A DNA stretch of 43,921 nucleotides from a bacterium (lineage in GTDB: Bacteria; Patescibacteriota; Minisyncoccia; Phycocordibacterales; Zambryskibacteraceae). A program made the position numbers and the translations under genes. The notes under the pieces were generated by a model, which did no database searches, was not told the DNA's origin, and worked only from the letters and a program-made list of their open reading frames with translations. Where the stretch lies: contig JAHFOF010000001.1 of assembly GCA_023266935.1 (NCBI GenBank), forward strand, positions 103,830 to 147,750, given 5' to 3'. Each line of letters starts with the position of its first letter. Position 1 is the first letter of the stretch. Shown here in pieces: positions 1 through 38,113 of this stretch.

Positions 1-438
1 ATCCTCTCGAGTCTCACGATCGGCAAGACGTCCGGCCAGCGCACCATCGCCAAGGCGACCAAGCTTTTCGGCTACATCGACCCCGATTTCAAGAATTGGG
101 GAACTGATGTGGAGAGCGAAGCTCATGGTGAGACCTCGGTCGAAGTTCGCGAACTCACGCAGGACGCCACTTTCATCCAGATGTTCGGTGACACCGGTCG
201 CCCGATGGACGACATGGTCCTCACTCAGGACCAAATCATCGAGTTCGTCGAGAAGCACCGTGAACATCTCCGCACCGACGGCTATGCCACCTTCTTCCTC
301 TTCAAGGCGAAGAACGAAGTCTTCGTCGCGAGCGTGCGCCGGGCTGGCGGCGGCGACCTCGGGGTGGACGTGGGCCGTTTCTCGGGCGGCTACGTCTGGT
401 ACAGCGGGCGTCGGCATCGCGTGGTGGTTCGCAACTGA
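1..438 (+). CDS. Hypothetical protein (5'-partial), putative DGR target with C-terminal variable-region-like segment
   Basis: Frame +1 is open from base 1 (ILSSLTIGKT...) to TGA at 436-438. GC-rich. The C-terminus FVASVRRAGGGDLGVDVGRFSGGYVWYSGRRHRVVVRN is encoded by an A-depleted stretch rich in NNC codons. Confidence 0.75.
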   Translation: MLSSLTIGKTSGQRTIAKATKLFGYIDPDFKNWGTDVESEAHGETSVEVRELTQDATFIQMFGDTGRPMDDMVLTQDQIIEFVEKHREHLRTDGYATFFLFKAKNEVFVASVRRAGGGDLGVDVGRFSGGYVWYSGRRHRVVVRN

Positions 439-475
439 ACCTAAGAACCTTGGGTCTAGAACCTTAGACCCAGAG

Positions 476-514
476 TCCCTTGGGCCCTTAACACGGCCCA
501 GGGGATTTTCTTTT
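476..514 (+). terminator. Hairpin/intrinsic terminator after first GC-rich gene
   Basis: TCCCTTGGGCC/GGCCCAGGGGA stem followed by TTTTCTTTT. A second hairpin TGGGTCTA/TAGACCCA lies just upstream (451-472). Confidence 0.7.
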
Positions 515-591
515 ATAAAATTTGTTTGACAACAAGGACTTGAATGTAGTAGTATTTACACACGCCGACGGGGCGTTTTTTAATACAATTT

Positions 592-774
592 ATGAATAGA
601 TTCATTAATTACATCAAGGATACACAAGGTGAACTTCATCATGTGTCTTGGCCAACTCGTAAACAAGCAATCGCCTTCACAGCGATAGTTATTTTGGTTT
701 CTTTCTTTACTGCTTTTTTTCTCGGATTCTTCGACTACATCTTTTCTCTTATTATTCAAAAGTTTGTTCTTTAA
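592..774 (+). CDS. secE: Preprotein translocase subunit SecE
   Basis: ELHHVSWPTRKQ motif plus one TM helix, directly upstream of nusG. Confidence 0.95.
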   Translation: MNRFINYIKDTQGELHHVSWPTRKQAIAFTAIVILVSFFTAFFLGFFDYIFSLIIQKFVL

Positions 775-783
775 TTTTCTAAG

Positions 784-1329
784 ATGACCAAGCAAAAAAT
801 CTCCGAAGGTAGACATTGGTATGTGATCCACACTTATGCTGGATATGAAAATGCTGTGATGAGAAATCTAAAACAACGCATCGAATCACTCGGGATGGAG
901 GACAAAATTTTTAATGTCATCGTTCCTACAGAAAAGAAAATTAAGATTAAAGGAGGCAAGCGTGTTGAAGAAGAAGAGAAGATTTATCCGGGTTATATCC
1001 TCGTGGACATGATCGTGACCGATGACTCTTGGTATGTAGTGCGCAACACTCCTCGAGTAACTGGGTTCGTCGGTTCTGGAGTTTATCCTGTGCCTATAGA
1101 ACAGAAAGAAGTTGATGTTTTGTTCGGTCGAATGAATGCAGACAAGGTCACTCATACCATTAACCTCGTACCAGACGATGGGATACTCATCATCGATGGT
1201 CCATTCAAGGATCTAGAAGGCAAGGTGAAAGAAGTTGATAGTGAAAGGGGCAAGGTCAAAGTGCTTGTCTCTATGTTCGGCAGGGAGACTCCTGTCGAAT
1301 TAGATTTTCTTCAAATAAAAAAAATCTAA
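784..1329 (+). CDS. nusG: Transcription termination/antitermination factor NusG
   Basis: WYVIHTYAGYEN, YPGYILVDM, VRNTPRVTGFVG and a KOW domain ending MFGRETPVELDF. Confidence 0.98.
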   Translation: MTKQKISEGRHWYVIHTYAGYENAVMRNLKQRIESLGMEDKIFNVIVPTEKKIKIKGGKRVEEEEKIYPGYILVDMIVTDDSWYVVRNTPRVTGFVGSGVYPVPIEQKEVDVLFGRMNADKVTHTINLVPDDGILIIDGPFKDLEGKVKEVDSERGKVKVLVSMFGRETPVELDFLQIKKI

Positions 1330-1335
1330 TTCGAC

Positions 1336-1375
1336 TAGTTGATAAGTTGGTTAGTTAGAAAGTTTATAAGTTAGA
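1336..1375 (+). repeat. Degenerate 8-bp tandem array (5 x WAGTTNNW)
   Basis: tagttgat aagttggt tagttaga aagtttat aagttaga. Confidence 0.75.
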
Positions 1376-1388
1376 AAGGCAAAATTTA

Positions 1389-1925
1389 ATGATTGAAATA
1401 ATCTTTGAAGCTCACGGAACCACTTATGACAATGAAGCCAAACTACCTTCTGGACATAATGATGTAGAGTTATCACCCTTGGGCATACAACAATCTAAGG
1501 AAATGGGTGAAAGATACAAAAACGATTATTTCGATGCAATTTTTTGTTCAGATCTTCAAAGAGCTTATAAAAGCGCAGAAATTGGATTTAAAAATAAGTG
1601 GCCGATTATAAGAGACGCACGATTAAGAGAATGTAATTATGGTGAATACACCCAAAACCCGAGTGTGTGGAGAGAAGACGAAAAGATTCATAGAATAAAG
1701 GAGTCATTTCCAAAAGGCGAATCCTATATCCAAACAACGGCGAGAATGAGGGGTTTTCTTGAAGACTTAATCAAGAATTATGAAGGGAAAAAAGTAATGA
1801 TTATTGGGCATAGGGCAACTCAATATGGGCTAGAGAATCTTGTTAATAAAGTTCCTTTAGAACAAATAATTTCTGCCCCATGGAAATGGCAACCAGGATG
1901 GAAATATAATTTTGAGAAACTTTAA
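1389..1925 (+). CDS. Histidine phosphatase (phosphoglycerate mutase-like) family protein
   Basis: EAHGTT (variant RHG motif), SDLQRA, LRECNYG, IIGH. Confidence 0.85.
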   Translation: MIEIIFEAHGTTYDNEAKLPSGHNDVELSPLGIQQSKEMGERYKNDYFDAIFCSDLQRAYKSAEIGFKNKWPIIRDARLRECNYGEYTQNPSVWREDEKIHRIKESFPKGESYIQTTARMRGFLEDLIKNYEGKKVMIIGHRATQYGLENLVNKVPLEQIISAPWKWQPGWKYNFEKL

Positions 1926-1931
1926 AAATTT

Positions 1932-2300
1932 ATGACCACTGGGCTAGAAAATTTGAAAGTTTATCAAATGACCGAAGCTTTGGAAGTAGAGGTTTATAAG
2001 ATTCTAAAAGAATTTCCTAAAGAAGAAATCTATGGGAGTGTTGATCAGATAAAAAGATCTTCATCCTCAGTTTCAAATAATATTGCGGAGGGTTATGGAA
2101 GATATAGCTTTGCTGAGAAAATTCGTTATATGTATATAGCAAAAGGGGAAGCCGAAGAAACAAAGAGAAATATTATCCGCTCGAGTAAAAAGGGATTATT
2201 GTCGGTTAATGTTGCAAATAAGCTCTCTGATATGTATACTGACCTTCTAAAAGCAATAAGTGGTTATATTAGATTTCTAAAGGATAAATCAACGAAATAA
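1932..2300 (+). CDS. Four-helix-bundle protein (23S rRNA IVP / Avd-like family)
   Basis: LENLKVYQ, FPKEEIYG, QIKRSSSSVSNNIAEGYGR, YIAKGEAEET are typical of this family. Confidence 0.9.
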   Translation: MTTGLENLKVYQMTEALEVEVYKILKEFPKEEIYGSVDQIKRSSSSVSNNIAEGYGRYSFAEKIRYMYIAKGEAEETKRNIIRSSKKGLLSVNVANKLSDMYTDLLKAISGYIRFLKDKSTK

Positions 2301-2344
2301 CGAATCAAACTTAGCAACTTATTAACTTTCCAACTTCTTAACTA
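2288..2344 (+). repeat. Degenerate 8-bp tandem array (about 7 x NNNAACTW), inverted relative to 1336-1375
   Basis: atcaacga aataacga atcaaactt agcaactt attaactt tccaactt cttaacta. Confidence 0.75.
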
Positions 2345-2350
2345 TTTATT

Positions 2351-2773
2351 ATGGCCAAGAAAATAACCAAAATTCTCAAACTTCAAATCCCCGGAGGCAA
2401 AGCGGTGCCTGGTCAGGCGCTCGGTCCGGTCCTCGGAGGTGCAGGTATAAACATCGGTGAATTCGTGAAGCGTTTTAATGATGAGACCAAGGATCGAATT
2501 GGAGAAACAGTACCCACCATCGTCGAAGTATATGAAGATCGAACATATCATTTGATTTACAAAACCGAACCAGCAGCAAATTTGATATTGAAAATGCTTA
2601 ATAAAGAAAAGGGTTCGGGTAAACCTAATACTGAAAAGATTGGCTCGCTCTCAAAATCTCAAGTGAAGCAAATCGCTGAAAAGAAAATGGTGGATTTGAA
2701 TGCGAATGACATAAATGCAGCGATGAAAATCATCGAAGGCACCGCAAGGAGCATGGGTGTTGATGTGAAATAA
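2351..2773 (+). CDS. rplK: 50S ribosomal protein L11
   Basis: KLQIPGGKAVPGQALGPVLG, IIEGTARSMGV. Confidence 0.97.
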   Translation: MAKKITKILKLQIPGGKAVPGQALGPVLGGAGINIGEFVKRFNDETKDRIGETVPTIVEVYEDRTYHLIYKTEPAANLILKMLNKEKGSGKPNTEKIGSLSKSQVKQIAEKKMVDLNANDINAAMKIIEGTARSMGVDVK

Positions 2774-2777
2774 GTCA

Positions 2778-2801
2778 GAAAGCTCCGAGAGGGGCTTTTT
2801 T
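2778..2801 (+). terminator. Intrinsic terminator after rplK
   Basis: AAAGCTCC-GAGA-GGGGCTTT stem-loop followed by a T-tract. Confidence 0.7.
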
Positions 2802-2832
2802 GTTTGTTCGGCATTTCGGGTATGATGAAAGT

Positions 2833-4416
2833 ATGAAAACGACTATAGAAAACCTAGTCAAAAAGGCTCTGGAGAGCGTCGGGGTGTCAGAGGCGAGGTT
2901 TACTGTGGAACACCCAACCAACCTTACCTTTGGAGATTATACGACCAATGCAGGGATTGTCTCGAAGAAAGCACCCGAGCTTTTGGCTTATCTTGAAGAT
3001 CATAAACCAGAGGGAGTAGAAAAAATTGAAATCAAATCAGGTTTTATAAATTTTTATTTGACCAAAGAATTTTTTAAGGAAAGTATCGGAGAGATAATAG
3101 AGAGGGGAAGTGAATTTGGGAAGAATAAAAATCTAAAAGGTCAGAAAACAATCGTTGAATACACTGATCCGAATCCATTCAAAGAATTTCATATCGGACA
3201 CCTGATGAGCAATGCGATAGGAGAATCTATCGCACGAATTTCTGAATGGAATGGCGCGGAAGTGATGAAAGCTTGCTATCAAGGAGATGTGGGGATGCAT
3301 GTGGCCAAGGCTTTATGGAAGGATGATTATGCTTTAGGTTCAAAAGCCTATGAAGAAGATGAGCAAGCCAAGAAGGAAATTCAAGATATAAACAAAAAGA
3401 TATATGAAAAATCTGACCCAGAATTGAATAAAAAATATGAAGAAGGCAAAGAAAGGTCTTTAGAAGAATTTGAAAAGATTTATAAAAAGCTCGGCACCAA
3501 GTTTGATTTTAATTTTTTTGAAAGCGAAGTAGCAGACTTTGGTAAAAAATTAGTTGAAGAGAATACTGGGGAGATATTTGAAAAGGGTGAAGGCGGGGCA
3601 GTGATTTTCAATGCAGAGAAGTTTGATAAGTATCTACATATCCGAGTGTTTATAAACTCCGAAGGACTTCCAACGTATGAAGCGAAGGAGCTCGGTTTGG
3701 CTAAATATAAATTTGAAAAATATCCATACGATAAATCGATTGTGATAACAGGAAACGAAGTGAACGATTATTTCAAAGTTTTACTTTGTGCCCTTGGGCA
3801 AATTTATCCAGAACTAGCACAAAAAACAGAACATTTATCTCATGGGATGCTTCGTTTAACTACAGGCAAGATGAGTTCGAGGACAGGAGAAGTGATCACA
3901 GCAGAGTCACTCATAGAAACAGTGAAGGAGAAAGTGAAAGGGGATGAACAAGTGGCCATCGGAGCGATTAAATATATGATTCTTAGACAATCTATAGGGA
4001 ACGATATTATTTTTGATATAGAGAAATCTGTTTCTACAGAAGGTGACTCAGGAGTTTATCTTCAATATGCATATGTTAGAGCAAAATCTGTCACAGAAAA
4101 AGGAAGATTAATTATTCGTGACTTTGATTTATTAAAAGAGTCCACATCACAACAGGATCAAACTTTGTTAGAAAAAATATTATATAGATTTCCAGAGATT
4201 GTTTTGAGAGCGTGCGACGATCTTTCTCCAAACTATTTGGTTACTTATCTAACTGAAGTTTCTTCTGCTTTTAATAATTTTTATGCAACCACTCAAATAA
4301 TTAATCCGAACGATGTTCCAGAAAGTTATCATAGACTTGCTTTATCTAAAGCAACAGAAATAGTACTCAAAAACGGTCTAGATATTCTCGGCATTCCAGC
4401 ACCAGAGAGGATGTAA
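2833..4416 (+). CDS. argS: Arginine--tRNA ligase
   Basis: VEYTDPNPFKEFHIGH, KMSSRTG, GDSGVYLQYAYVR, ends PERM. ATG 2833 is preferred over the upstream TTG. Confidence 0.96.
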   Translation: MKTTIENLVKKALESVGVSEARFTVEHPTNLTFGDYTTNAGIVSKKAPELLAYLEDHKPEGVEKIEIKSGFINFYLTKEFFKESIGEIIERGSEFGKNKNLKGQKTIVEYTDPNPFKEFHIGHLMSNAIGESIARISEWNGAEVMKACYQGDVGMHVAKALWKDDYALGSKAYEEDEQAKKEIQDINKKIYEKSDPELNKKYEEGKERSLEEFEKIYKKLGTKFDFNFFESEVADFGKKLVEENTGEIFEKGEGGAVIFNAEKFDKYLHIRVFINSEGLPTYEAKELGLAKYKFEKYPYDKSIVITGNEVNDYFKVLLCALGQIYPELAQKTEHLSHGMLRLTTGKMSSRTGEVITAESLIETVKEKVKGDEQVAIGAIKYMILRQSIGNDIIFDIEKSVSTEGDSGVYLQYAYVRAKSVTEKGRLIIRDFDLLKESTSQQDQTLLEKILYRFPEIVLRACDDLSPNYLVTYLTEVSSAFNNFYATTQIINPNDVPESYHRLALSKATEIVLKNGLDILGIPAPERM

Positions 4417-4423
4417 TGTGTTC

Positions 4424-4452
4424 TTGACAAATAGTTTGTTTGGGTGTATAAT
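4424..4452 (+). promoter_or_regulatory. Consensus sigma70 promoter
   Basis: TTGACA-17 nt-TATAAT. Confidence 0.85.
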
Positions 4453-4531
4453 ATAAAGGAATAGAGTTCTTTACTATTCATCCCGCCTCGGGTGAGAGGA
4501 TTCAATGGGTAATGGAGCCCAAGGAGAAACA

Positions 4532-5098
4532 ATGGCTTGGATGACTCAGGATTGGACGATGGGGCAGTTGAACGCTCTCGTCAAGAAGATCGGCGAGAAG
4601 AACGCCCATGCGATTCTCGGAGACAAGGTGAAGTTTTCGATCGTGTTTGAGACGGTTGCTTCAACCCTCCTCACCCTTCTCCGCACGGTGAGGATGCCTG
4701 CCCAACCGGCAGTCACCACCTCGAAGCAGTATTTTGCAGAAGCTGGGGCCAAGTGGTTCGGGAACAATTTTGAGAGCCAGTTCCTTGGCCTCGAAGTTCC
4801 CGTCACCGATGTGGCCGAGCTTGCTGTAAGGAAGCTCGAGCAGTCGTCACTCGATGCTCCCATCCTCACCGAGCTGGGGGACAAGGCGGAAACATCGGTA
4901 TCCCAATTCAAGCAGTTCCTTGCGGACAACCGCGGGAGCACCGAGTGGTTCATCTTTTACCTTCGTGGTAAGGATGGTCGACTCTGGGCTGTGTCGGCGA
5001 GCTGGGTCGCCGACGGCGGCGGTTGGTACTTGGGCGCGCGCTCCGTCGAGAGTCCGGGCAGGGGGGGTGCGGGCGACCGGGTGGTTTCTCGCAACTGA
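4532..5098 (+). CDS. Hypothetical protein, putative DGR target
   Basis: AAGGAG SD before ATG 4532. GC-rich. The C-terminus LWAVSASWVADGGGWYLGARSVESPGRGGAGDRVVSRN is A-depleted and ends TCGCAACTGA. Confidence 0.75.
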   Translation: MAWMTQDWTMGQLNALVKKIGEKNAHAILGDKVKFSIVFETVASTLLTLLRTVRMPAQPAVTTSKQYFAEAGAKWFGNNFESQFLGLEVPVTDVAELAVRKLEQSSLDAPILTELGDKAETSVSQFKQFLADNRGSTEWFIFYLRGKDGRLWAVSASWVADGGGWYLGARSVESPGRGGAGDRVVSRN

Positions 5099-5162
5099 CC
5101 CTTTGACCTCGCCTTGCCCCGCCGTTAGGACGGGGTAAAGCGAGAGACCCTAAGAAGGTCAC

Positions 5163-5190
5163 AGAGCGCTTCGCAAGGAGCGCTCTTTTT
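5163..5190 (+). terminator. Intrinsic terminator
   Basis: AGAGCGCT/AGCGCTCT stem followed by TTTT. Confidence 0.8.
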
Positions 5191-5230
5191 CTTTGGCAAA
5201 AATTGTTTGAAATGCTAAGATTCAAGAACA

Positions 5231-8200
5231 ATGCCTGAAGATAAAGGGCCAACTACCGAAAGTAGGCAAAACAATAGTCGTTCCCAAAGAGAAGAAAAAA
5301 TACTTCAATTTTGGAAAGACCGTAATATATTTCAAAAAACTCTTGAGAAGAAATCTTCGGCAGGTGACTTTATTTTCTTCGAAGGCCCCCCAACAGCGAA
5401 CGGCAAGCCGGGCATTCATCATCTCGAAGCGCGAGCTTTTAAGGATGTTATCCCTCGATACAAAACCATGCGTGGATACCACGTGAACAGAAAAGCTGGT
5501 TGGGATACTCATGGACTCCCAGTAGAAATTCAAGCAGAAAAAACTCTAGGTTTAAAATCCAAGAAAGAAATAGAAGAATTCGGCGTAGCCAAGTTTAATG
5601 CTGAATGTAAAAGAAGCGTGGGGGAATACATTGATTTGTGGAGGGACTTTACTCGACGCATCGGGTATTGGGTGAACATGGATGATGCGTATTTTACTTA
5701 TCATAATTCATACATTGAATCTGTTTGGAAAATTTTGGCTCATGTCGAAAAGAGAAAACTTTTATACAAAGATTATAAAGTGGTTCCTTGGTGTCCGAGG
5801 TGTGGGACTGGACTTTCTTCTCATGAACTCGCTCAAGGTTATCAAGATGTGAAGGATCTATCACTTTATGTGAAGTTTAAAATTATTGGTTTTCCTGACG
5901 CATATTTCCTCGCCTGGACTACTACACCTTGGACGCTTCCGGGTAATGTTGGTTTGGCTGTTGGGCCAGAGATAGATTATGTAGAAATAAAAGTTGGTGG
6001 AGAAATTTTGGTCTTGGCCAAGAATAAACTCTCAGTTATCACCGAGCCTTATGAAATAGTCGCCGAACACAAAGGCAGTGAGATGGTCGGGATGTCTTAT
6101 GAACCGCTTTATCCGTTTATAAAAGACCTGCCTGCCGGCAAGGCAGGCGAAACAGGCAAGGGTTTTAAAGTTTATCCTGCGGACTTTGTGACTACCGAAG
6201 ATGGGACGGGGATTGTACACACAGCGGTGATGTATGGACAAGAAGATTTTGATTTAGGAAACAAAGTTGGATTGCCAAAGGTACATTTGGTCAATCCGGA
6301 TGGGACCTTTATGAAAGGTACAGATTGGCTCGAAGGCCGTTCGGTCGTAGATGAAACTCTGGCTGTAGAAATTCTGAAAGATTTACAAAACAGAGGACTT
6401 TTATTCGGCAAAGAGAACTACAACCACTCTTATCCATTCTGTTGGAGATGTAATACTCGATTAATCTATTATGCTCGCGACTCTTGGTATATAGGGATGT
6501 CCAAACTTCGAGATGAATTGGTGAAAGAAAATGAAAAGATAAATTGGGAACCAGAATATATAAAAGAAGGTCGTTTCGGTGAATGGCTCCGAGAGGTCAA
6601 GGACTGGGCGATTAGTCGAGAGAGGTTTTGGGGTACTCCTCTTCCTGTTTGGCAATCAGAAAGTGGAGATAGATTGGTCGTGGACTCTATTGAGACTCTA
6701 AAAAAATATTCAAAAACCAACAAAAATCGTTTTATAGGTATGAGACATGGTGAGGCTGGTCATAATGTGTCGTATATTTGTAGTGCCTCGGTAGATTTTC
6801 CTGATCATTTAACTGAAAAAGGTAAAAAAGAAGTTATAGAATCGGCCGTAAAACTCAAAAAAGAGGGAATCACAAAAATTATCACCTCTCCTTTTGTTAG
6901 GGCGAGAGAAACGGCTGAATTAGTAGCTAAAGAAATCGGATTGCCGATTGAACAGATTATCCTCGATGAACGAATTCGTGAATATGGATTTGGTATTTTC
7001 GACCAGCAATCACGTAAACTTTATGACAAGTGGCGCCTAGAAAATAATTCTATTGAAGCAAAACCAAATGACGGAGAATCTGTTGGAGAAGCCAAAATGA
7101 GATTCGCAGATTTCTTTTATGAAACAGAAAAAAAATATAAAAATGAAGTAATTCTTTTTGTGTCTCATGGTATAGGATTTGAAGTGATACCCCCAATCCT
7201 TAGTGGATATAATAAACAAGAAACGTGGGATAAATGGGAATCAAATCCCTTGTACTATGGACAGACAAAAGAATATTCTTTTATTTCTCTACCCCACAAC
7301 GAAAATTATGAACTCGACCTTCATAAACCATTTATTGATGAAATTGAACTAGAGAAAGACGGCAAGGTATATAAGAGGGTGAAGGAAGTCATGGATGTTT
7401 GGTTTGATTCTGGTTCGGTACCATTTTCTCAAGATCCAAAAGCAGAATTTAAACCCGCGGACTTCATCTCTGAAGCCATAGACCAAACTCGCGGTTGGTT
7501 TTATACCCTGCACGCCATAGGTGTTTTAATGGAGAAGGGTAAAGTATTCAAAAATGTGATTTGTCTCGGGCTTTTGATGGATAAAGATGGCAAAAAGATG
7601 AGTAAATCTGTGGGCAATGTGGTTGACCCTTTAGAAATGATAGAAAAATACGGTGCTGATACTCTTCGTATGTGGATGTATTCAGTCAATCAACCCGGAG
7701 ATTCAAAAAATTTTGATGAGAAGACTGTGGATGAGATAAACCGCAAGGTCTTTAATCTTTTGGACAATGTTTATGCTTTCTATGAACTATATAGGGATAA
7801 AAATATAGAGGTCAAAGGTAAAAAGATAAAAAGTGAAAACATTTTAGATCAATGGATTATGGTTAGGCTCGAAGAACTTATAAATACAATGTCGACCAAA
7901 TTAGATTCATATAAACTCCTTGAACCAACACGAGCCATTAGAGATTTTATGGACGATTTGTCTACTTGGTATCTCCGTCGCTCCAGAGATAGATTAAAGG
8001 ATGAAGCAGCAAACCCCGCCGAGCTGGCCGGGGCAAGGGAAACTTTGTACTTTGTTTTAAAAACAGTTTCAAAACTGCTCGCCCCGTTCGCTCCATTTTC
8101 AGCCGAAGATTTGTATCAAAAACTGCGAACAGAGTCCGATCCGGAGAGTGTTCACCTAGAAACATGGCCAGAAAAACAAAAAGACTCTATTTTCTCTTTT

Positions 8201-8605
8201 CTACATAAAAAATCTGCAGTGACAGAGAACATGAAGAGAACCAGAGAGATTGTAACTCAAGCTCTCGAAGCTCGTTCGAAGGCAAACATAAAGGTTCGTC
8301 AACCACTTGCCTCGCTTTCTGTTAAACTCGACGGTGCTTATTTGGATTTAATAAAAGATGAAGTAAATGTGAAAGTGGTTATGGACAAAAATATTGAAGG
8401 AGTAGAACTCGACACAAAGCTTTCTCCAGAGTTGATTGAGGAGGGCAAAGTTAGGGACATCATCAGAGTGATTCAAGAAATGAGAAAAGAGAAAAATCTG
8501 AAGCCAACAGACAAAATCGATTATCAAATTCCTGAAACAGACAGAGAGTTGGCTTTAAAAAACAAAAAACAAATAGAAGAAGTGACAAATGTGAACCTCG
8601 TTTAG
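5231..8605 (+). CDS. ileS: Isoleucine--tRNA ligase (type 2) with inserted histidine-phosphatase domain
   Basis: EGPPTANGKPGIHH, GWDTHGLPVE, WTTTPWTLPGN, DWAISRERFWGTP, KMSKS. An RHGE...SHG insert spans about 6720-7300. Confidence 0.95.
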   Translation: MPEDKGPTTESRQNNSRSQREEKILQFWKDRNIFQKTLEKKSSAGDFIFFEGPPTANGKPGIHHLEARAFKDVIPRYKTMRGYHVNRKAGWDTHGLPVEIQAEKTLGLKSKKEIEEFGVAKFNAECKRSVGEYIDLWRDFTRRIGYWVNMDDAYFTYHNSYIESVWKILAHVEKRKLLYKDYKVVPWCPRCGTGLSSHELAQGYQDVKDLSLYVKFKIIGFPDAYFLAWTTTPWTLPGNVGLAVGPEIDYVEIKVGGEILVLAKNKLSVITEPYEIVAEHKGSEMVGMSYEPLYPFIKDLPAGKAGETGKGFKVYPADFVTTEDGTGIVHTAVMYGQEDFDLGNKVGLPKVHLVNPDGTFMKGTDWLEGRSVVDETLAVEILKDLQNRGLLFGKENYNHSYPFCWRCNTRLIYYARDSWYIGMSKLRDELVKENEKINWEPEYIKEGRFGEWLREVKDWAISRERFWGTPLPVWQSESGDRLVVDSIETLKKYSKTNKNRFIGMRHGEAGHNVSYICSASVDFPDHLTEKGKKEVIESAVKLKKEGITKIITSPFVRARETAELVAKEIGLPIEQIILDERIREYGFGIFDQQSRKLYDKWRLENNSIEAKPNDGESVGEAKMRFADFFYETEKKYKNEVILFVSHGIGFEVIPPILSGYNKQETWDKWESNPLYYGQTKEYSFISLPHNENYELDLHKPFIDEIELEKDGKVYKRVKEVMDVWFDSGSVPFSQDPKAEFKPADFISEAIDQTRGWFYTLHAIGVLMEKGKVFKNVICLGLLMDKDGKKMSKSVGNVVDPLEMIEKYGADTLRMWMYSVNQPGDSKNFDEKTVDEINRKVFNLLDNVYAFYELYRDKNIEVKGKKIKSENILDQWIMVRLEELINTMSTKLDSYKLLEPTRAIRDFMDDLSTWYLRRSRDRLKDEAANPAELAGARETLYFVLKTVSKLLAPFAPFSAEDLYQKLRTESDPESVHLETWPEKQKDSIFSFLHKKSAVTENMKRTREIVTQALEARSKANIKVRQPLASLSVKLDGAYLDLIKDEVNVKVVMDKNIEGVELDTKLSPELIEEGKVRDIIRVIQEMRKEKNLKPTDKIDYQIPETDRELALKNKKQIEEVTNVNLV
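6127..6147. repeat. Short palindromic element (family A) in-frame in ileS
   Basis: CCTGCCTGCCGGCAAGGCAGG, encodes LPAGKAG. Near-identical to 37896-37915 and 42501-42520. Confidence 0.8.
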
Positions 8606-9112
8606 ATGTCATACACTATTCACACCACCAAAGGTTTGGTCATGTCGCAGAGAGCTTTGCGAGAAGCAGATAGGGTGTATTCAATCTTGACCGAAGAACT
8701 CGGACTCGTTCGAGCCACAGCGACGGGAGTAAGGAAAGGGCACTCCAAACTTCGCGGACTGCTTGAACCACTCTCGCTCTCATCTGTTTCTCTTGTTCGA
8801 GGTAAAGAATTTTGGAGAATCACTTCCTCAGAATTAATAAAAAAAATTGATTCAAGTGAAGAAATATTGAGGCCTCTTGCTCTCCTTGAAAAGCTTGTCC
8901 AGGGTGAAGCCCCGAATCCAGAATTGTTTAAGGCGGTAGAGAAAATAATTTTAGATAAAGAAAAGCACGGAGAGACATTTGAAATTCACTTTGTGGCTCA
9001 CATTCTCTTTCATCTGGGGTATTTGAAAGAAGGGGATTTGGTCTTACCCAAAAAAGAGATGATTAAAGCTATAAATCAAGGGTTAGAAGCGAGTCAGTTG
9101 ACAAACAGCTAA
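8606..9112 (+). CDS. recO: DNA repair protein RecO (short form)
   Basis: N-terminal OB-fold pattern READRVYSILTEELGLVRATATGVRKGHSKLRGLLEP. Confidence 0.85.
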   Translation: MSYTIHTTKGLVMSQRALREADRVYSILTEELGLVRATATGVRKGHSKLRGLLEPLSLSSVSLVRGKEFWRITSSELIKKIDSSEEILRPLALLEKLVQGEAPNPELFKAVEKIILDKEKHGETFEIHFVAHILFHLGYLKEGDLVLPKKEMIKAINQGLEASQLTNS

Positions 9113-9126
9113 TTTAGGTATATACT
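9098..9126 (+). promoter_or_regulatory. Sigma70 promoter overlapping recO end
   Basis: TTGACA-17 nt-TATACT. Confidence 0.8.
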
Positions 9127-9177
9127 ATAAGTAGTCAGAGGTTCTTTTAGGACCACTTGAAATCAAAGGACAAAGCC

Positions 9178-9603
9178 ATGAGCGACATGATCGTCCGCCC
9201 GTTCAAGACGGACCGCAACCGCACGCCGCAGGAAATGCTCAACGCCACCGGCCGTGTCCAGTACACGGACAAGTCCGTGGTTAAGGGCATGCCAAGGGGT
9301 GAGGGTGAGGAAGGCGAAGTAGTCTTCTTCAAACTCGATCGCTACCTCTTGGACGATGACATCGAGAAGGAGTTCGAACTGCGTGGCCTCAAGCCCGCAG
9401 ACCCGTACTCGCTCGCAGCAGTCAACGAAGCCGATCCGGCTTTCGCCGACACACACCCGAACGGCACCCACTGGAAGGATGCCGAAGGCAATTGGTGTTT
9501 CGTCACGTTCAACAGGTGGGACGACGAGCGCGAAGTGAATGTCGACCGCAGCGAGGGAGAGGGGGTTAGCGGCGCGTGGTTTGCTGGCCTCCGTCGCAAC
9601 TAG
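9178..9603 (+). CDS. Hypothetical protein, putative DGR target
   Basis: AAAGGA SD before ATG 9178. GC-rich. C-terminus WCFVTFNRWDDEREVNVDRSEGEGVSGAWFAGLRRN ends TCGCAACTAG. Confidence 0.7.
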   Translation: MSDMIVRPFKTDRNRTPQEMLNATGRVQYTDKSVVKGMPRGEGEEGEVVFFKLDRYLLDDDIEKEFELRGLKPADPYSLAAVNEADPAFADTHPNGTHWKDAEGNWCFVTFNRWDDEREVNVDRSEGEGVSGAWFAGLRRN

Positions 9604-9630
9604 TTTCAAACAAAACCCTTTCTTGGGTTG

Positions 9631-9660
9631 GCGATCTCTCACGAGGTCGCTTTTTTCTTT
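9631..9660 (+). terminator. Intrinsic terminator
   Basis: GCGATCTC/GAGGTCGC stem followed by TTTTTT. Confidence 0.75.
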
Positions 9661-9677
9661 GATATACTTAATGAATC

Positions 9678-11597
9678 ATGCATGAAGATGAAAGCAAAGT
9701 GGGTGAGTTGAACGACGAACTTTATTCGCGTACACAGTATCATCCTCCAGAAGACAAAAGAACTCCCATTGAACCAGTCGAACAAGCGGTAGAAGTCGGA
9801 GATACTTTCCGTGGGCCAAAGCTCGAAGAACTTCTTCAGCACGAACTCATACCCACCACAGAACATCCATTGGTGAAGAAGATTTTTATTCTCGCTCTTT
9901 CTTTTTGTTTATTGGCTGGAGCAGTTGCAGCCTTTATTTATTTTGGAGGAGGGAACTTTATTTCTTCAAAAAATGTAGACATCACAGTAAACGGTCCAGT
10001 CTCAATTTCTGCAGGAGACCCTCTTGATTTGAGTATTATTTTGACTAACAAAAACAACGCCGATTTACAACTGGCCACCATGACCATCGATTATCCAGAA
10101 GGAACTCGAACTTTTGAAGATCAAACCGTTGCCCTTAGTCATCAAAAGATTGCTATAGGTTCTGTGGGGTTAGGACAAAACGTGACCAAAAATATTAAAG
10201 CTGTTTTGTTCGGACAAACTGGAGATATAAAGGAAATAAAAATAACCGTTGAATATGGGCTAAAGGGTTCAAATGCCTCTTTCAATAAAACCAAAATTTA
10301 CCAAGTAGCCGTTGGGGTTACCCCTATCACCTTAACTGTTGATGAACCACAAAAGGTGACCTCGGGAGATACTTTCACCACTACCTTAAATATTCTCGCC
10401 AACTCAACCAATATTTTAAAAAACGTAGTGGTACGGGGCGAGTATCCTTATGGATATAGTCCCGTTTCTACTACACCAAACAGCGTATCGACTGATAAAA
10501 ATGTTTGGGTTCTGGGAGACCTTGCTCCAGGAGACAAAAGAACCATCACTGTTCGAGGAATTTTAGTCGGTGAAAATCAGGACGAGAGGACTTTTAGATT
10601 TTATGCTGGTATTGCTAATTCAGATAATCCAGAAAAATTTGATACATCTCTGGCCCAAACCTTAGAAACCATTTCACTCGATAGACCAAATGTTGGTTTG
10701 AAAATAAATTTGAACGGAGAAAACATCGACACCTACGTCGCTCCTGCGGGTCAGAATATTCAAGGGAGTGTAGCTTTCACTAACAACCTCTCTTCAGCTC
10801 TGACCGATTCAAAAATTGTCATCAAGTTTTCTGGGGCACCGCTTGATCGATTCACGGTTCGAGCTCAAAACGGTGGATTTTATAATTCGAGCGATAACTC
10901 TATTACTTGGACCAAAGACAACACCGATTCTTTAAAAATACTTGAACCGGGAGACAGTGGAGCAGTTTTCTTCAACTTTTCTTCATTGGCCGATCTTCCT
11001 ACTAGCACAAAAAATCCAGAAATAAAAATTCAAGCCAGTTTTGTAGGGACGAGCCAAGGCGGAGGAATGGGGGACACGGCTGTTAGTGATTCAAGTTCGG
11101 TGAAGATTGCATCACAAGTATCTCTCTCGACGAAAGCTTATTATTCCAAAGGACCATTTTTAAACAAAGGGCCTCTACCTCCCAAAGCAGAAAAGATTAC
11201 GACTTATACAATCACTTTTAATTTGGGCAATACGCAGAATGATATAGAGACACCGATAGTAACTGCGGTCCTCGGACCAAATGTGAAGTGGATGAGCGCT
11301 GCGACTTCTTCAGAAAAAATAATTTATAATCCTAATAACAATACTGTTACTTGGACATTGGATAAATTGGTTTCGGGTGCTGGCTTTTCTGCACCTCTAC
11401 GCACGGCTTCGTTCCAAATTTCTCTCACTCCTTCTATAGGACAGATAAACAGTATTCCTAACCTTATAAATAATATTCAGTTTTCGGGGACGGATACCTT
11501 TACAGGCAAGGGTATAAATCTTACAAACCAATCTGTTACTACCACCCTTTCTTCTGATCCAAGGTTTGTTCAGGGTAATGATGTAGTTGTGAAATAG
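9678..11597 (+). CDS. Membrane-anchored extracellular protein with tandem Ig-like/DUF11-like beta domains
   Basis: Single TM helix near residue 70-90, then beta-rich repeats (e.g. WVLGDLAPGD, ITWTKD, VTWTLDKL). Confidence 0.7.
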   Translation: MHEDESKVGELNDELYSRTQYHPPEDKRTPIEPVEQAVEVGDTFRGPKLEELLQHELIPTTEHPLVKKIFILALSFCLLAGAVAAFIYFGGGNFISSKNVDITVNGPVSISAGDPLDLSIILTNKNNADLQLATMTIDYPEGTRTFEDQTVALSHQKIAIGSVGLGQNVTKNIKAVLFGQTGDIKEIKITVEYGLKGSNASFNKTKIYQVAVGVTPITLTVDEPQKVTSGDTFTTTLNILANSTNILKNVVVRGEYPYGYSPVSTTPNSVSTDKNVWVLGDLAPGDKRTITVRGILVGENQDERTFRFYAGIANSDNPEKFDTSLAQTLETISLDRPNVGLKINLNGENIDTYVAPAGQNIQGSVAFTNNLSSALTDSKIVIKFSGAPLDRFTVRAQNGGFYNSSDNSITWTKDNTDSLKILEPGDSGAVFFNFSSLADLPTSTKNPEIKIQASFVGTSQGGGMGDTAVSDSSSVKIASQVSLSTKAYYSKGPFLNKGPLPPKAEKITTYTITFNLGNTQNDIETPIVTAVLGPNVKWMSAATSSEKIIYNPNNNTVTWTLDKLVSGAGFSAPLRTASFQISLTPSIGQINSIPNLINNIQFSGTDTFTGKGINLTNQSVTTTLSSDPRFVQGNDVVVK

Positions 11598-30031: not shown

Positions 30032-30950
30032 GTTGTTTACCCAAATATGTTTATCACCTTAGTAACTTCAAAGCGGTTTAAGTAGCCACGAAGCTACTTT
30101 ATGGTCGAAAGACCCCCGCTTCGGTTCGAAGCGGGGGTCTTCATTTCTGGGTCCCGCAAAATGCGGGGTGAACTTTGACAAAATTAATTCCGTCACAGAT
30201 GAAGTACCTATAAAAGTGGGTCTTTTCGAATCTGGAGACGGGGAAGTCTCGAGCCGTTGATTTAAGTTGAACGACTCGAGACAATGCTAAATGAAAGTAT
30301 TGATTTCATTTAGCAGGACAGAGCAGAGTCAACTCAATAACTCGGACGGGTTATTGAGCACTCAAAGAAATTAAGTAAACCCCGCCAAGGAGGCGGGGTA
30401 AAGTGGTTTTTAAATTTCCTAATAGGAAATTTAAGGGCGTATGGTGGATGCCTTGACTCCAATGAGGTTATGAAGGACGCAGCATGGCGGCGAAACGCTT
30501 CGGGGAGGTGCCTAGCAACCTTTGATCCGGAGATGTCCGAATGGGGAAACCCGGTGTCTTTTGACATCATCTCGCCAATTAGGCGGGAAACTCACCCAGT
30601 GAAGTAAAACATTTCAGTAACTGGAGGAAAAGAAAACAATAGTTATTTCCTAAGTAGCGGCGAGCGAAAAGGAAGAAGCCCAAACCCAGTTTCATTCTCA
30701 CCACAGAATTTATTCTGTTGTGGGATTGATGCTGGGGGTTGTAAGGCAGAAACGGCACAAATTTATTTGTGCGGAAAGTTAAAAAATGTTTGGTTAGCAG
30801 AAGCTTTTGGAAAGTAGCACCCAAGTGGGTAATAGTCCCGTAAGCGAAAATCAAACATCTTTCTCGTTTCTGTTCTTGAGTACCTCGAGACACGAATGGC
30901 TCGGGGGAATCTGCCGGAACTAACCGGTAAGGCTAAATACTCTTGGAGAT

Positions 30951-30989
<39 letters not shown>

Positions 30990-32228
30990 GCCCGGTAAGG
31001 GCGGTGAAATAGATCTGAAACCATATGTTTACAAGGAGTCGGCGAGGGTATTTATATCCTCTACGGCGTGCCTATTGAAGAATGAGCCAACGAGTTTATG
31101 CATACTGCGCGGCTAAGCCCCAATAAAGGGTGGAGCCATAGGGAAACCGAGTGTGAATAGCGCGTTTGTAGTATGCATAAGACCCGAAGCCAGAGCGAGC
31201 TTGTCATGAGCAGGGTGAAGTTTGTCGAAAGACAGATGGAGGCCCGAACCGGTGACCCGTGCAATAGTCTCGGATGACTTGTGATAAGAAGTGAAAAGCT
31301 AATCGAGCCTGGTAATAGCTGGTTCTCTCCGAAATAGCTTTTGGGCTAGCGTCGCGTGTTCCCCACTGGGGTAGAGCACTGGAAGGTCTGGACAGGGAGA
31401 AATCTCGCTAGACCTATCAAACTCCGAATACAGTGGATTAAAAATGCGGCAGTTAGACTGCGGGGGCTAAGCTCCGTCGGTCAAAAAGGAAACAGCCTAG
31501 ATCTCAATTTAAGGTCCCTAAATTTACACTAAGTGCACTTAAGGAGGTGATATTTCTCTGACACTGAGGAAGTTGGCTTAGAAGCAGCCATCTTTTAAAG
31601 AAAGCGTAACAGCTCACTCAGTAAGAGATATCGCACCGCAGATTCATGGGGCTAAGTGTAGTACCGAAACTGAGGATTTAATTCTGCTTCGGCAGGATTG
31701 AGTGGTAGGAGAGTATTCGCATCTGCTGTGAAGGCGAAGGGGTGACCCACGCTGGAGCGTTGCGAAGTAAGAATGTTGGCACAAGTAACCACAATGCGGG
31801 TGAGAAACCCGCACGTCGAAAGAACAAGGTTTCCCTCTCAACGATTGTCGGAGAGGGGTTAGTCGGGCCTAAGGAAATGGTGAGAACCGCATCCGATGGA
31901 CACATGGTTAATATTCCATGACTGTTTACGTAAGTGATGGGAGGACGAGGATAAGTATGTATCGCGCATTATTGGATTTGACGTCCGTGCATTGAGGTCG
32001 CTTCCGTGGAAAATCCCGGGGCACAAGACCAAGGTGAGCGGAAATGCTGAAGGGCAACCTTCAGTAAATGATACAAAGCTATTCTCCAAGAAAATTCTCT
32101 AAACTTATTGCGTAGACATCCGTACCGCAAACCGAAACAGGTGTTCAGGTCGAGTAGACCAAGACGAACGAGTGAGACGTCCCCAAGGAACTCGGCAAAA
32201 AAGCAGCCGTAACTTCGGAATAAGGCTT

Positions 32229-32484
32229 GCCCCCTACATTCAGCCCTTTTGGTGCTGAAATGTACAAATAGTGGGGTGGTAGCCATGGGAGAAAATGGAT
32301 CGAATCCCGATGAGAACCGTTGAACATCCTCTACACGTACGAACGAATGTACTTGTACGATGTCGCTGTGCTTCTCTCGGTCGTTGGTAAAAGGATCATC
32401 CGCCAACGCAAAAATCAAAGCCTTCTCATGGCTACCACTTCACTACCTCTTGTTGATTTAACAAGAGGGTTGAATGTAGGGGGC
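32229..32484 (+). other. Large structured insertion/intervening sequence in 23S helix 63 region
   Basis: Between GTAACTTCGGAATAAGG and CCGCAG; nested long stems 32229-32247/32466-32484 and 32269-32291/32423-32445. Confidence 0.8.
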
Positions 32485-32637
32485 CGCAGCTAAAGTATCT
32501 CTGGCAACTGTTTATCAAAAACACAGCTCCCTGCGAACTCGCAAGAGGATGTATAGGGGGTGACACCTGACCAATGCCAGAAGGTTAAACGTCGGTGGTG
32601 ATTGCCGCAAGGCATGAGCTGGATGATGTAAGCCCTG

Positions 32638-32672
<35 letters not shown>

Positions 32673-33253
32673 TCTGAAACTTTCGAAAGAAGGTTTCAGA
32701 AGGACTGGGACCGTTCGGATACGGAGTAAACAGTTGAATGAATTAAAATTACACAAAACGCTGCCTCGCTGTATAGAGATATATAGCAGGTCCAAAAATG
32801 TGACTATATCGGTGAAATCTAGAAACGGACAACACCGAGGGAAAGTTTGTGGATTTCGTTGAGGAAAAAGTTCTTTATGTTGGGTTGTGTTGGAAAGTTG
32901 CGTCGAATGGTTGGTCCGCTAGCCTACACGAGGGCGCAGAGGTACCTCCTCTGGACGCATAAAATCATTCAGTGCCGATCCTCAAAAGGGAAAGGACAGT
33001 AAATCGCGAAGCATGTAGACTATGGACCCGCAATGTCCCGGGGTACCACGGAAACATTGTCCTATAGTCAGAGTACTGACTGCGGAGACGTCACTCATGC
33101 GTGGCGAATGATTTCTTTCCAACATAATCCAAAAAGGCAACGAATACTCGTTGCCTCCTCAACGAAGTTCATAAACTACCCGTAGAGACTACACGTCACA
33201 CATCCGTATTAAATTCGGATGAAGATATAGTCCAAAGCTCCACAGGAAGCTAG
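32673..33253 (+). mobile_element. Group I intron in 23S rRNA at about E. coli position 1931, no homing endonuclease ORF
   Basis: Interrupts CCTAAGGT^AGCGAAATTCC; 5' exon ends in T and intron ends in G. P3 TGTGAC/GTCACA, P4 TCGGTG/CACCGA, P7 elements GAGACTA and AAGATATAGTCC, P8 CATCCG/CGGATG. Confidence 0.93.
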
Positions 33254-33893
33254 AGCGAAATTCCTTGTCTGGTAAGTTCAGACGCGCACGAATGGTGTAA
33301 TGACTGGAGAACTGTCTCGGGGACCTGCTCGGTGAAAATACAATACCGGTGAAGATGCCGGTTTCCTGCAGATAGACGAAAAGACCCCAGGAGCTTTACT
33401 GCAACTTGATATTGAAAATATAATTAGCATGCGTAGCATAGATGGGAGAGGTTATGTGCAAGGTTTCGGTCTTGTAATACTCAACAGTGAAATACCATTC
33501 TTGTAGATTGTATTTTCTAACCTAAACGGAAAAAACGTTTAGAGACAGTATCTGGCGGGCAGTTTTAGTGGGGCGCTATCCTCCTAAAAAGTAACGGAGG
33601 AGTCTATTAAGGTCAGCTAGGCGCGAATGGAAACCGTGCCGATAGTGTAATGGCATAAGCTGGCTTGACTGTGAGTCGTACATGACAAGCAGACGCGAAA
33701 GCGGAGCATAGTGAACTTTTAGTGCGCATTAGAGGCGGCTAAAAATTATCGGATAAAAGCTACCCTGGGGATAACAGGCTGGTTGTGCCTAAGCGTCCAT
33801 AGCGACGGCACAGTTCGGCACCTCGATGTCGGCTCAACTTATCCCGGAGGTGGAGAAGCTTCCAAGGGTATGGCTGTTCGCCATTTAAAAAGT

Positions 33894-33928
<35 letters not shown>

Positions 33929-34299
33929 TGGTCTCCTATCTACTGCAGGCGTTTGATTCTTGAGGAGATTTGACTCTAGTACGAGAGGACCGAGTTGAAC
34001 TGACCTCTGGTGTACCAGCTGTCCTGCCAAGGGCACCGCTGGGTAGCTATGTCGGGAATGGATAAATTCTGAAAGCATCTAAGAATGAAGCCAACTCCAA
34101 GATTAGGAATCGTTGAGAGCCCTAGAAGATGACTAGGTTGATAGGCTTTAGGTGTAAGCACAGTAATGTGTTGAGCCGAGAAGTACTAATTGCTCGATTC
34201 TTATTAGGAAATTTAGGAATCACAAATTTATTTTCTGTTTCTGTCCTGCTAAATGAAATCAATATAATTGTTTTTGGAATATCTTGAGTTGGGAAGTTT

Positions 34300-34374
34300 G
34301 CACCCGTAGTTTAACCGGCAAAACAACAGATGATTCATATCTGTAGAGTGGAGGTTCGAATCCTTCCGGGGGCA
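34300..34374 (+). tRNA. tRNA or pseudo-tRNA with atypical anticodon loop (identity unresolved)
   Basis: Acceptor GCACCCG/CGGGGGC, D arm GTTT/AAAC, anticodon stem ACAGA/TCTGT around 9-nt TGATTCATA, T arm GGAGG-TTCGAAT-CCTTC. Confidence 0.7.
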
Positions 34375-34451
34375 TGAAGCACCAACAAAACGGGGAATTT
34401 ATTTCCCCCTAACTCGAGGTATTTCAAAATAAAAGTTATTCGAAAATTATG

Positions 34452-34559
34452 TTCTGGTGATTCGTCGCGAGGGTCACACCCGTTCTCATTCCGAACACGG
34501 CAGTTAAGCCTCGTTGAGCCGATGATAGTCCTATGGGCAAAAGTAGGTAATCGCCGGAA
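34452..34559 (+). rRNA. rrf: 5S rRNA
   Basis: CACACCCGTTCTCATTCCGAACACGGCAGTTAAG, GCCGATGATAGT, AGTAGGT; termini pair. Confidence 0.93.
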
Positions 34560-34609
34560 CATAGCGTTTGAATATAAAAATACCCCTATTTTTGGGGTTA
34601 TTTTTATGC

Positions 34610-35426: not shown

Positions 35427-35924
35427 GTGAACAACACGCTCAGGCAAGCACTTCGCAAAACTCGCGAACTGCGCCAACAAGTCGAGAACTTGCTTCTCGG
35501 CGATGAAGGTGATGTGTACGAAACAGAACTCAAGAAGTTTGTGGCCAGGCGACCATGCTGGGGGCCAAAGGCAAAACCGTTGGCAACCAGAGAATATCAG
35601 AAATTCGAACTCTACCTCCACGACAAGCAGAAGAATGGTGGACGGATCAATGGCTTCGACCTCGAGAATTACCTCAAGGAAACCGGCCTCATCAACCGTG
35701 CCCTCTCCCTCGAAGACGAGTTGGTCAAGGGTTGGCTTGAGAACCCACGGACCTACCCTGAGGAGCTCAAAGGCAAAGCCGTCTTCCTGTGGAAGTCCAC
35801 ACAGGACTCCGACGGCAACCGCGGGGTCGCGTGTCTCTGCTGGCTCGACGGCCGGGTGGTGGTGCGTTGGGGCTGGCTCGTCGTCGATTGGGACGGCAGC
35901 CGCCCTGCCCTTCTCGCCCCGTAG
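35427..35924 (+). CDS. Hypothetical protein, putative DGR target
   Basis: AAAGGAG SD and GTG start. The C-terminus DGNRGVACLCWLDGRVVVRWGWLVVDWDGSRPALLAP is extremely A-poor. Confidence 0.78.
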   Translation: MNNTLRQALRKTRELRQQVENLLLGDEGDVYETELKKFVARRPCWGPKAKPLATREYQKFELYLHDKQKNGGRINGFDLENYLKETGLINRALSLEDELVKGWLENPRTYPEELKGKAVFLWKSTQDSDGNRGVACLCWLDGRVVVRWGWLVVDWDGSRPALLAP

Positions 35925-37987: not shown

Positions 37988-38016
37988 TTGACATTTAGTT
38001 TATTTGGACATATAAT
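37988..38016 (+). promoter_or_regulatory. Consensus sigma70 promoter
   Basis: TTGACA-17 nt-TATAAT. Confidence 0.85.
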
Positions 38017-38113
38017 ATAGGAAGGTGGGCAAGGATTTCCTTGCAACTGTTCCGGCAGGCAAAACGGAAACACGCATGGATAATGCGTGGAAGTTCTTCA
38101 AAGGAGAACGGCT

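Follow-up and report, generated by a model that had tools for sequence, protein, structure and literature searches.

The eight nucleotides TCGCAACT, which close three small genes near the left end of the stretch analysed here, are very probably the local version of a DNA signal (core CGCAA[C/G]) that closes the variable repeats (VRs) of target genes of Patescibacteria-type diversity-generating retroelements (DGRs), and that corresponds to the initiation of mutagenic homing (IMH) site of the Bordetella phage system. The stretch (the window; 43,921 nt) is C2:103830-147750, that is, positions 103,830 to 147,750 of contig JAHFOF010000001.1, and belongs to a Zambryskibacteraceae genome (GenBank assembly GCA_023266935.1, here G000) of 543,574 bases in 12 contigs, rated 94% complete and with about 40% GC. 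The same contig carries an intact DGR on its minus strand, 75 kb upstream of the window; gene 2 of the window is a second target of its template repeat (TR), while genes 1 and 3 find no TR in the assembly. The features concerned are as follows.

1-438, plus strand: gene 1, cut at the window start; GC-rich, ends VVVRN*; putative orphan VR-type target
316-428 (approximate), plus strand: VR-like stretch of gene 1; A-depleted tail (0.09), no cognate TR in the assembly
429-436, plus strand: TCGCAACT, IMH-like end of the gene 1 VR
4505-5098, plus strand: gene 2, DGR target 75 kb from the reverse transcriptase (RT) gene, paralogue of C2:29843-30391
4979-5091, plus strand: VR of gene 2, 113 nt, matching the TR at C2:29476-29588
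5089-5096, plus strand: TCGCAACT of gene 2; TR-VR homology stops after TCTCG (5091), where CAACTGA (IMH) faces TTACTAT (IMH*)
9178-9603, plus strand: gene 3, putative orphan VR-type target, ends GLRRN*
9594-9601, plus strand: TCGCAACT, IMH-like end of gene 3; CGCAAG plus stop in most family members

The window is otherwise rich in AT-rich housekeeping genes (nusG-like, L11-like, ArgRS, IleRS, MetRS, RecA, FtsK and SecDF, from lists of open reading frames (ORFs) and Pfam), with short GC-rich islands among them, three of which are genes 1 to 3. The three copies of TCGCAACT are the only ones in the window, and each is read as CGC AAC T(GA/AG), i.e., as the last two codons and the first base of the stop, giving the protein ends ...VVVRN*, ...VVSRN* and ...GLRRN*. 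A preliminary description of this DNA had noticed this ending and its RN* reading on three genes that it called otherwise unrelated, and both observations hold: as queries against this genome, the proteins of genes 1 and 3 each matched only themselves, and that of gene 2 returned itself, its paralogue and the TR only. The genome-wide count which that description had proposed gives five copies, four of them at the stops of GC-rich ORFs (59-60% GC) with A-poor tails. The fourth copy (C2:29845, minus strand) is the end of the target gene adjacent to the RT, and the fifth (C2:45702) lies inside ordinary sequence. Chance as the origin of the shared ending is ruled out by its placement at gene stops, not by its number. 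Over the last 90 nt, A makes up a fraction of 0.09 in both gene 1 and gene 2 and of 0.20 in gene 3, compared with a median of 0.30 across 981 ORFs, whose 5th and 1st percentiles are 0.167 and 0.12. The tails of genes 1 and 2 are extreme in their A depletion.

The DGR on contig C2 has, in order on the minus strand, a target gene with its VR, the TR, a bAvd gene (on the opposite strand) and the RT gene.

C2:29843-30391, minus strand: RT-adjacent target gene, 182 aa, closing with TCGCAACT
C2:29476-29588, minus strand: TR, 113 nt, adenine-rich (31 A)
C2:28098-29075, minus strand: RT gene, 326-aa ORF, PF00078 (RVT_1) at 85.5 bits (cut-off 29.6)

The RT contains LGNLTSQ, which we take to be a motif typical of DGR RTs, and the bAvd gene matches PF22296 at 40.1 bits (cut-off 40) and NF033474 at 56.2 bits (E 3.5e-15), the latter below its cut-off of 80. 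In the RT-adjacent VR, 21 of the 31 TR adenines are changed, and no other position departs from the TR. TR and VR are collinear over 113 nt through ...GTGGTTTCTCG, after which the VR reads CAACTGA and the TR TTACTAT; the VR end is thus ...TCTCGCAACTGA and the TR end ...TCTCGTTACTAT, and the TR version of the motif is TCGTTACT where the VR has TCGCAACT. This is the pairing to be looked for between an IMH and the 3' end of a template repeat (IMH*), a comparison also put forward in the preliminary description. With an RT beside the repeats, a TR-VR pair differing at TR adenines, an Avd, an IMH/IMH* pair and a GC-rich inverted repeat downstream of the IMH, the cassette reads as a canonical, intact DGR. 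Changes from A to G make up 17 of the 21 adenine changes in this VR and 18 of the 23 in gene 2, and the tails of the targets are GC-rich and A-poor because their adenines have been replaced mostly by G. A 159-aa ORF (C2:27616-28095, minus strand) that begins at the last base of the RT gene looks RNase HI-like by eye; a different gene occupies this place in the relative G005.

In the VR of gene 2, 23 of the 31 TR adenines are changed and there are three further differences at non-A positions. Gene 2 and its RT-adjacent paralogue agree in all 315 nt upstream of the VR; within it they differ at 22 of 113 positions, 19 of which are TR adenines. The two VRs are independent adenine-mutagenised copies of one TR. 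An identical flank together with two independently mutagenised VRs is what recent mutagenic homing predicts, and the comparison points to such an event at this pair of genes, the target 75 kb from the RT having been rewritten independently of its RT-adjacent twin. A unitig from the sequencing runs covering 4664-4993 is about twice as deep as its neighbours, in line with the duplication of gene 2 and the paralogue. These runs, all groundwater metagenomes, were used as contigs and unitigs over window positions 1-10000, a form that carries no information on variation within VRs; small insertions at 357-363, within the gene 1 VR, come from one low-depth contig, and no claim of activity is based on them.

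Homologues of gene 2 (n = 98) are all annotated as 'hypothetical', with Parcubacteria, Zambryskibacteria or Paceibacterota as source names, and Pfam and NCBIfam searches of the target proteins gave nothing above cut-off. A structure model of gene 2 built from 68 sequences (predicted local distance difference test score, pLDDT, 90.9) was compared with known structures. For residues ~48-188, nearly all of the top 50 VIA-align matches were C-type-lectin-like or FGE/EgtB proteins, and the variable protein of the Treponema DGR (2y3c_A) was matched weakly (Z 4.7, root-mean-square deviation 3.6, 121 residues aligned). The predicted fold is consistent with the usual C-type-lectin-like scaffold of DGR targets, on evidence that is weak.

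The end of the VR was surveyed across the lineage in G000 and 100 relatives, a set whose members are kin. A DGR RT was found in 38 of the 101 genomes at E <= 1e-20, and the scanning of 32 loci gave 26 TR-VR pairs of at least 60 nt, whose boundary hexamers are as follows.

VR boundary (n = 26): CGCAAG 14, CGCAAC 5, CGCAG[GT] 4, other 3
TR boundary (n = 26), more frequent forms: CGCAAC 9, CGCAAA 3, CGAAAC 3, CGAAGT 4
TR boundary (n = 26), rarer forms: CGCTAC 2, CGTTAC 1, CGCCAC 1, other 3

CGCA(A/G)N closes 23 of the 26 VRs, and in all 23 (23/23) the TR hexamer differs from that of the VR. The exact 8-mer of G000 is thus a local variant of a lineage-wide core. Its AA, which the preliminary description saw preserved behind an A-stripped stretch, probably survives because it lies just past the boundary of TR-VR homology.

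The signal appears to act at the level of DNA. In the gene 1 family, GTGGTGGTTCCGCAAC.. is read as ..VVVPQ followed by 2-10 residues, and the G000 copy, with one base fewer, ends VVVRN*; CCGCAAC codes in this family for Pro-Gln, in the other frame. The family keeps the DNA while frame and protein change, which speaks against the conservation of RN as a purely protein-level feature, an explanation already raised in the preliminary description. A regular-expression count of terminal Arg codons in the gene 2 and gene 3 families gave 24 candidates (23 CGC, one CGG), of which four lay inside the VR and were set aside (G071, G094, G050 and G016b). The terminal codon is CGC in 20 of 20, compared with 116 of the 237 other Arg codons of the same genes (49%), and the adjoining Val/Leu codons vary. 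In four relatives of gene 2 the motif, as CGCAAT, stands 10-15 codons ahead of the stop. It is quite improbable that the ending merely preserves the last beta-strand of the variable domain (..V-V-S-R-N), with the identity of the DNA following from GC-rich codon usage. The consensus of 68 members of the gene 2 family does end in QVVSRN, and no Arg codon is more frequent in these genes than CGC, but neither accounts for the Pro-Gln reading of the gene 1 family or for the uniform CGC beside variable neighbours; moreover, the hexamer recurs across VR families that searches do not connect, and a near-copy occupies the same place in the TR, which encodes no protein end.

Hairpins follow closely behind each of the three genes, as had been described from inspection of the sequence, and the genes are flanked by further putative regulatory sites.

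4424-4452, plus strand: sigma-70-type consensus promoter before gene 2 (12/12)
9098-9126, plus strand: promoter-like site before gene 3 (11/12)
451-472, plus strand: first hairpin after gene 1, within three CTTNG-type repeats
472-509, plus strand: terminator-like hairpin with T-run after gene 1
5108-5144, plus strand: GC-rich hairpin 10 nt past the gene 2 stop, candidate target-site hairpin or cruciform
5163-5186, plus strand: terminator-like hairpin after gene 2
9614-9651, plus strand: small hairpin (9614-9629), then terminator-like hairpin (9630-9651), after gene 3
CTTNG arrays: loci L013 and L030-L060 of relatives; window 439-475; C2:89466-89530; C7 just below 13723

After genes 1, 2 and 3 a first hairpin is followed by a terminator-like hairpin with a T-run (DNA-fold z -4.3, -3.9 and -3.3). 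Counting the RT-adjacent VR as well, hairpins stand 10-20 nt past the stop with z of -3.1 to -4.3, and their loops are not of the GRNA type. A promoter similar to that of gene 2 is present before gene 3 and at 37988 (family D5). In most cassettes of this RT lineage the VR stop is followed by an array of four to seven repeats of 7-8 nt with a CTTNG core. In the 70 nt past the VR boundary the 26 cassettes have a mean of 4.7 CTT(N0-2)G motifs, against 0.58 past the TRs and 1.04 (standard deviation 0.96) in shuffles; successive motifs stand 7-8 nt apart in 54 of 96 intervals, and one array is reported by Tandem Repeats Finder with a period of 8. Within G000 only two of 694 ORFs have four such motifs downstream. 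One of them is a VR gene; the other (C12:39729-40055) was rejected as a VR gene and looks like a spurious ORF. The gene 2 type has, in place of the array, one CCCTTTGAC-like unit together with a GC hairpin. Judged by titles and abstracts, no literature description of CTTNG-type arrays downstream of a VR was found.

These elements suggest how the system would work. RNA of the TR would be reverse-transcribed by RT-Avd with errors at adenines, and the cDNA would replace the VR up to the boundary before CAAC, which would explain the surviving AA beside an A-stripped VR. The hexamer and the downstream element (a GC hairpin in the gene 2 type, CTTNG repeat arrays in the others) may mark the recipient and tell it from the donor.

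The standing of genes 1 and 3 is less direct. The ORF of gene 1 continues upstream across a 10-N scaffold gap (C2:103820-103829). Homologues of gene 1 occur in 6 of the 100 relatives, and in G037 one is followed by its own TR, Avd and RT; those of gene 3 occur in 13, and in G005, of the same genus, the homologue is again followed by TR, Avd and RT. In the cassettes of relatives the TR is followed by a motif, CTCTCTTCATTTCTC, and a hairpin. Further genes of this type are found in the window and elsewhere in the genome.

35427-35924, plus strand: gene 4, putative orphan VR-type gene; tail A fraction 0.04, the most A-poor in the genome
C4:105191-105820: VR-type gene, paralogue of gene 4, ends TCTCGCAAGTTAG
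C2:88857-89465: VR-type gene, ends ..GTTCGCAACAAGTAG
C7:13723-15576: VR-type gene, ends ..CCCGCAAGTGA

Gene 4 ends with CTCGCCCCGTAG at 35913-35924, and in its variant of the ending, TCTCGCCCCGTAG, the AA is replaced. Each TR-less VR of this genome fits best to the TR type of some relative, that of G032 in the case of gene 4, with 14-28 non-A mismatches; the comparison of gene 2 with the TR of another genome, which serves as a yardstick, gives a similar figure, 13. The gene 1 VR aligned to the TR of G037, its best type, has 81 matches, 22 A mismatches, 14 non-A mismatches and 3 gaps in 120 columns. By this resemblance, genes 1, 3 and 4 and the three genes elsewhere would be VR genes of sister cassette types. 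The present TR, to judge from its sequence, cannot rewrite genes 1 and 3, so that the proposal in the preliminary description of one machinery addressing different targets is supported only for gene 2 and the RT-adjacent paralogue, genes 1 and 3 matching no TR in the assembly. The A-tolerant scans of the assembly for TRs matched gene 2 and the RT-adjacent gene only. A conserved 40-nt pre-TR element, searched across the assembly with up to 10 substitutions allowed, was found only in its known copy; a post-TR hairpin query gave only weak, scattered matches across the assembly; and no cassette follows gene 1 or gene 3 in the window. In the relative G082 (L016, G082:C16:9134-9547), the ORF of a gene 3 homologue runs beyond ..FAGVRN into SLHFS.., the would-be translation of the TR-downstream motif, and this match may be a TR embedded in a gene copy.

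A second, decayed DGR lies at C11:13100-15800 (L004 4200-6800), with the only other RT of the genome, truncated to 213 aa; neither a TR nor an Avd was found there. Two paralogous GC-rich targets on C11 (273 and 204 aa) have VR-like ends closing with TCCCGCAG... This RT was considered as a source of TRs for genes 1 and 3 and rejected, as it is truncated and without TR or Avd, and its neighbouring targets end in a different motif, TCCCGCAG...

For the TRs that genes 1 and 3 lack here, failed assembly and loss are about equally likely explanations. Genes 1 and 3 may be live targets whose cognate TR/Avd/RT cassettes exist in the organism and escaped assembly or binning, several cassettes serving several families in one cell, a possibility that we place somewhat below an even chance. 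Relatives often have 2-4 RT copies (four matches in G037, four in G051, two in G005) and their cassettes are often on contigs of 1-4 kb; the genome is incomplete, in 12 contigs and with a scaffold gap within gene 1 itself; and both genes are intact, with promoter-like and terminator-like sites. Against this, the assembly yielded neither another TR or pre-TR element nor another intact RT, the RT on C11 being cut to 213 aa and without a TR, and neither gene is followed by a cassette here. It is equally conceivable, if again not quite probable, that the two genes are relics whose cassettes were lost, with VRs frozen and the end motif kept by descent. All three families have homologues in genomes where the RT search was empty at E <= 1e-20 (for example G065, G062, G036, G071, G016, G019, G050 and G041), most homologues have no TR within 1.5 kb, the remains of a DGR on C11 show that decay of cassettes happens in this genome, and the AA of the motif is gone from gene 4; yet the motif is exact in genes 1 and 3, their ORFs are intact, and the assembly is possibly incomplete. 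A single RT/Avd acting on all motif genes without a cognate TR, e.g., with the transcript of each gene as template, is highly improbable. Five VR-type genes with CGCAAC share a genome with one intact RT, and the nearly A-free tail of gene 4 (0.04) is what repeated self-templated mutagenesis of adenines would predict. However, the DGR passages of PMC5758913 and PMC3240598 contain no such mechanism, the A fractions of orphan VRs (0.09-0.20) resemble those of TR-linked VRs (0.09-0.11), and each family is paired in relatives with its own, ordinary TR.

Several observations weigh against the reading of TCGCAACT as the closing signal of DGR targets. By count the motif is not above chance in the window (three copies, 1.23 expected, at least three in 12 of 100 shuffles), and the tail of gene 3 is only moderately A-poor, which restricts the earlier statement about A-depleted ends to genes 1 and 2 in its strong form. 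Three of the 26 cassettes (in G006, G096 and G031) lack the VR hexamer, and in G005 it is the TR that ends with TCGCAACT and the VR with TCGCAAGT, so that the exact 8-mer is not VR-specific. The IMH interpretation of the preliminary description is supported by the contrast of TCGTTACT in the TR with TCGCAACT in the VR and by the hexamer at 23 of 26 VRs in the lineage. As the surveyed genomes are related, these counts overstate independence. A-tolerant, ungapped scans of the whole assembly (60-nt and 130-nt queries, 36-nt sliding) gave no TR for genes 1 and 3, whose status as DGR targets rests on family resemblance in a genome that is 94% complete without their TR; many homologues in relatives have no TR within 1.5 kb, and for some the RT search of their genome was empty. 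The structural matches of gene 2 are weak, with a best Z of 5.6, and Foldseek found no match to the model in the PDB at E <= 0.001. Finally, the function proposed for the motif is drawn from comparative evidence only.

The system belongs, as judged from these comparisons, to an established type, the chromosomal DGRs of Patescibacteria, and has an IMH. In their DGR passages, PMC5758913 and PMC3240598 give IMH, IMH* and a downstream inverted repeat as general DGR features, and according to the former, a minority of DGRs have a GC-rich inverted repeat beyond the IMH. The DGR of Bordetella phage BPP-1, as described there, resembles the present one in several ways: the VR forms the 3' end of the target gene, the TR lies beside Avd and RT, differences are confined to TR adenines, the VR and TR ends carry non-identical versions of a repeat that sets the 3' limit of mutagenesis, and a GC-rich hairpin comes shortly after the VR (here in the gene 2 type). 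It differs in having a 14-bp GC run plus 21 bp where the present system has a 6-nt core, CGCAA[C/G], with a short G/C/T-rich lead, and a single hairpin of 7-10 bp with a GRNA loop where most sister cassettes have arrays of 7-8-nt CTTNG repeats. In G000 the Avd gene is on the opposite strand, between TR and RT, and the targets are small (140-200 aa) cellular proteins, whereas that of BPP-1 is the phage tail fibre (mtd). Judged by their descriptions, the cellular DGRs of Patescibacteria or the candidate phyla radiation are also among the closest known systems (the 'CPR set' of PMC5758913; 'DGR clade 2' of PMC8144416), which agree in host type, groundwater origin, chromosomal location and targets without a Pfam family, and differ from the present case with its second target 75 kb away and at least five TR-less VR-type genes. 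The Treponema denticola DGR, with seven non-adjacent targets (as cited in PMC5758913), is similar in that a single TR serves VRs both next to it and far away, which have their end signal in common; in that account all listed targets match one TR, while here two of about eight VR-type genes do.

The results place a working-looking DGR in a 0.54-Mb groundwater Patescibacteria genome and offer an explanation for the common ending of small GC-rich genes scattered among housekeeping genes. The motif together with an A-poor tail could serve as a cheap annotation flag for VR genes distant from any RT. A short VR-end core that recurs across target families, always at least one base off the TR, and the downstream array are candidates for the means by which recipient and donor are discriminated. 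A more speculative reading, in our judgement rather unlikely, is that target recognition in this clade relies not on the GC run plus cruciform of BPP-1 but on a portable two-part tag, composed of the CGCAA[C/G] hexamer (at least one base off the TR) and four to seven CTTNG repeats of 7-8 nt. If so, units of promoter, scaffold, VR and tag would be interchangeable modules common to unrelated scaffolds, any co-resident RT/Avd could serve such a module given a matching TR, and the TR-less copies would form a reservoir of parked targets.

The VR-type genes stand out from the genome over their whole length and not only in their VRs (1-438, 4505-5098, 9178-9603 and 35427-35924; 56-60% GC against 40%), while the RT and Avd genes are AT-rich and genome-like, unlike the targets. 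The families are patchily distributed, with gene 1 in 6, gene 3 in 13 and gene 2 in 17 of the 100 relatives. GC-rich target genes with such a patchy spread suggest mobile modules. A paralogue of gene 4 lies 2.2 kb downstream of it (38105-38605; 36% identity over 86 aa, E 6e-16), preceded by a consensus promoter (37988-38020); the similarity ends where the A-poor tail of gene 4 starts, and the C-terminus of the paralogue is ordinary and contains A. Between genes 1 and 2 (1932-2300) is a gene whose 122-aa product, a four-helix bundle, belongs to the '23S rRNA intervening sequence protein' family (PF05635, E 1.5e-29), which is presumably related to Avd. By eye, the segment at 30400-34600 resembles an rRNA operon, with a 23S-like gene carrying apparent insertions followed by tRNA-like and 5S-like sequences.

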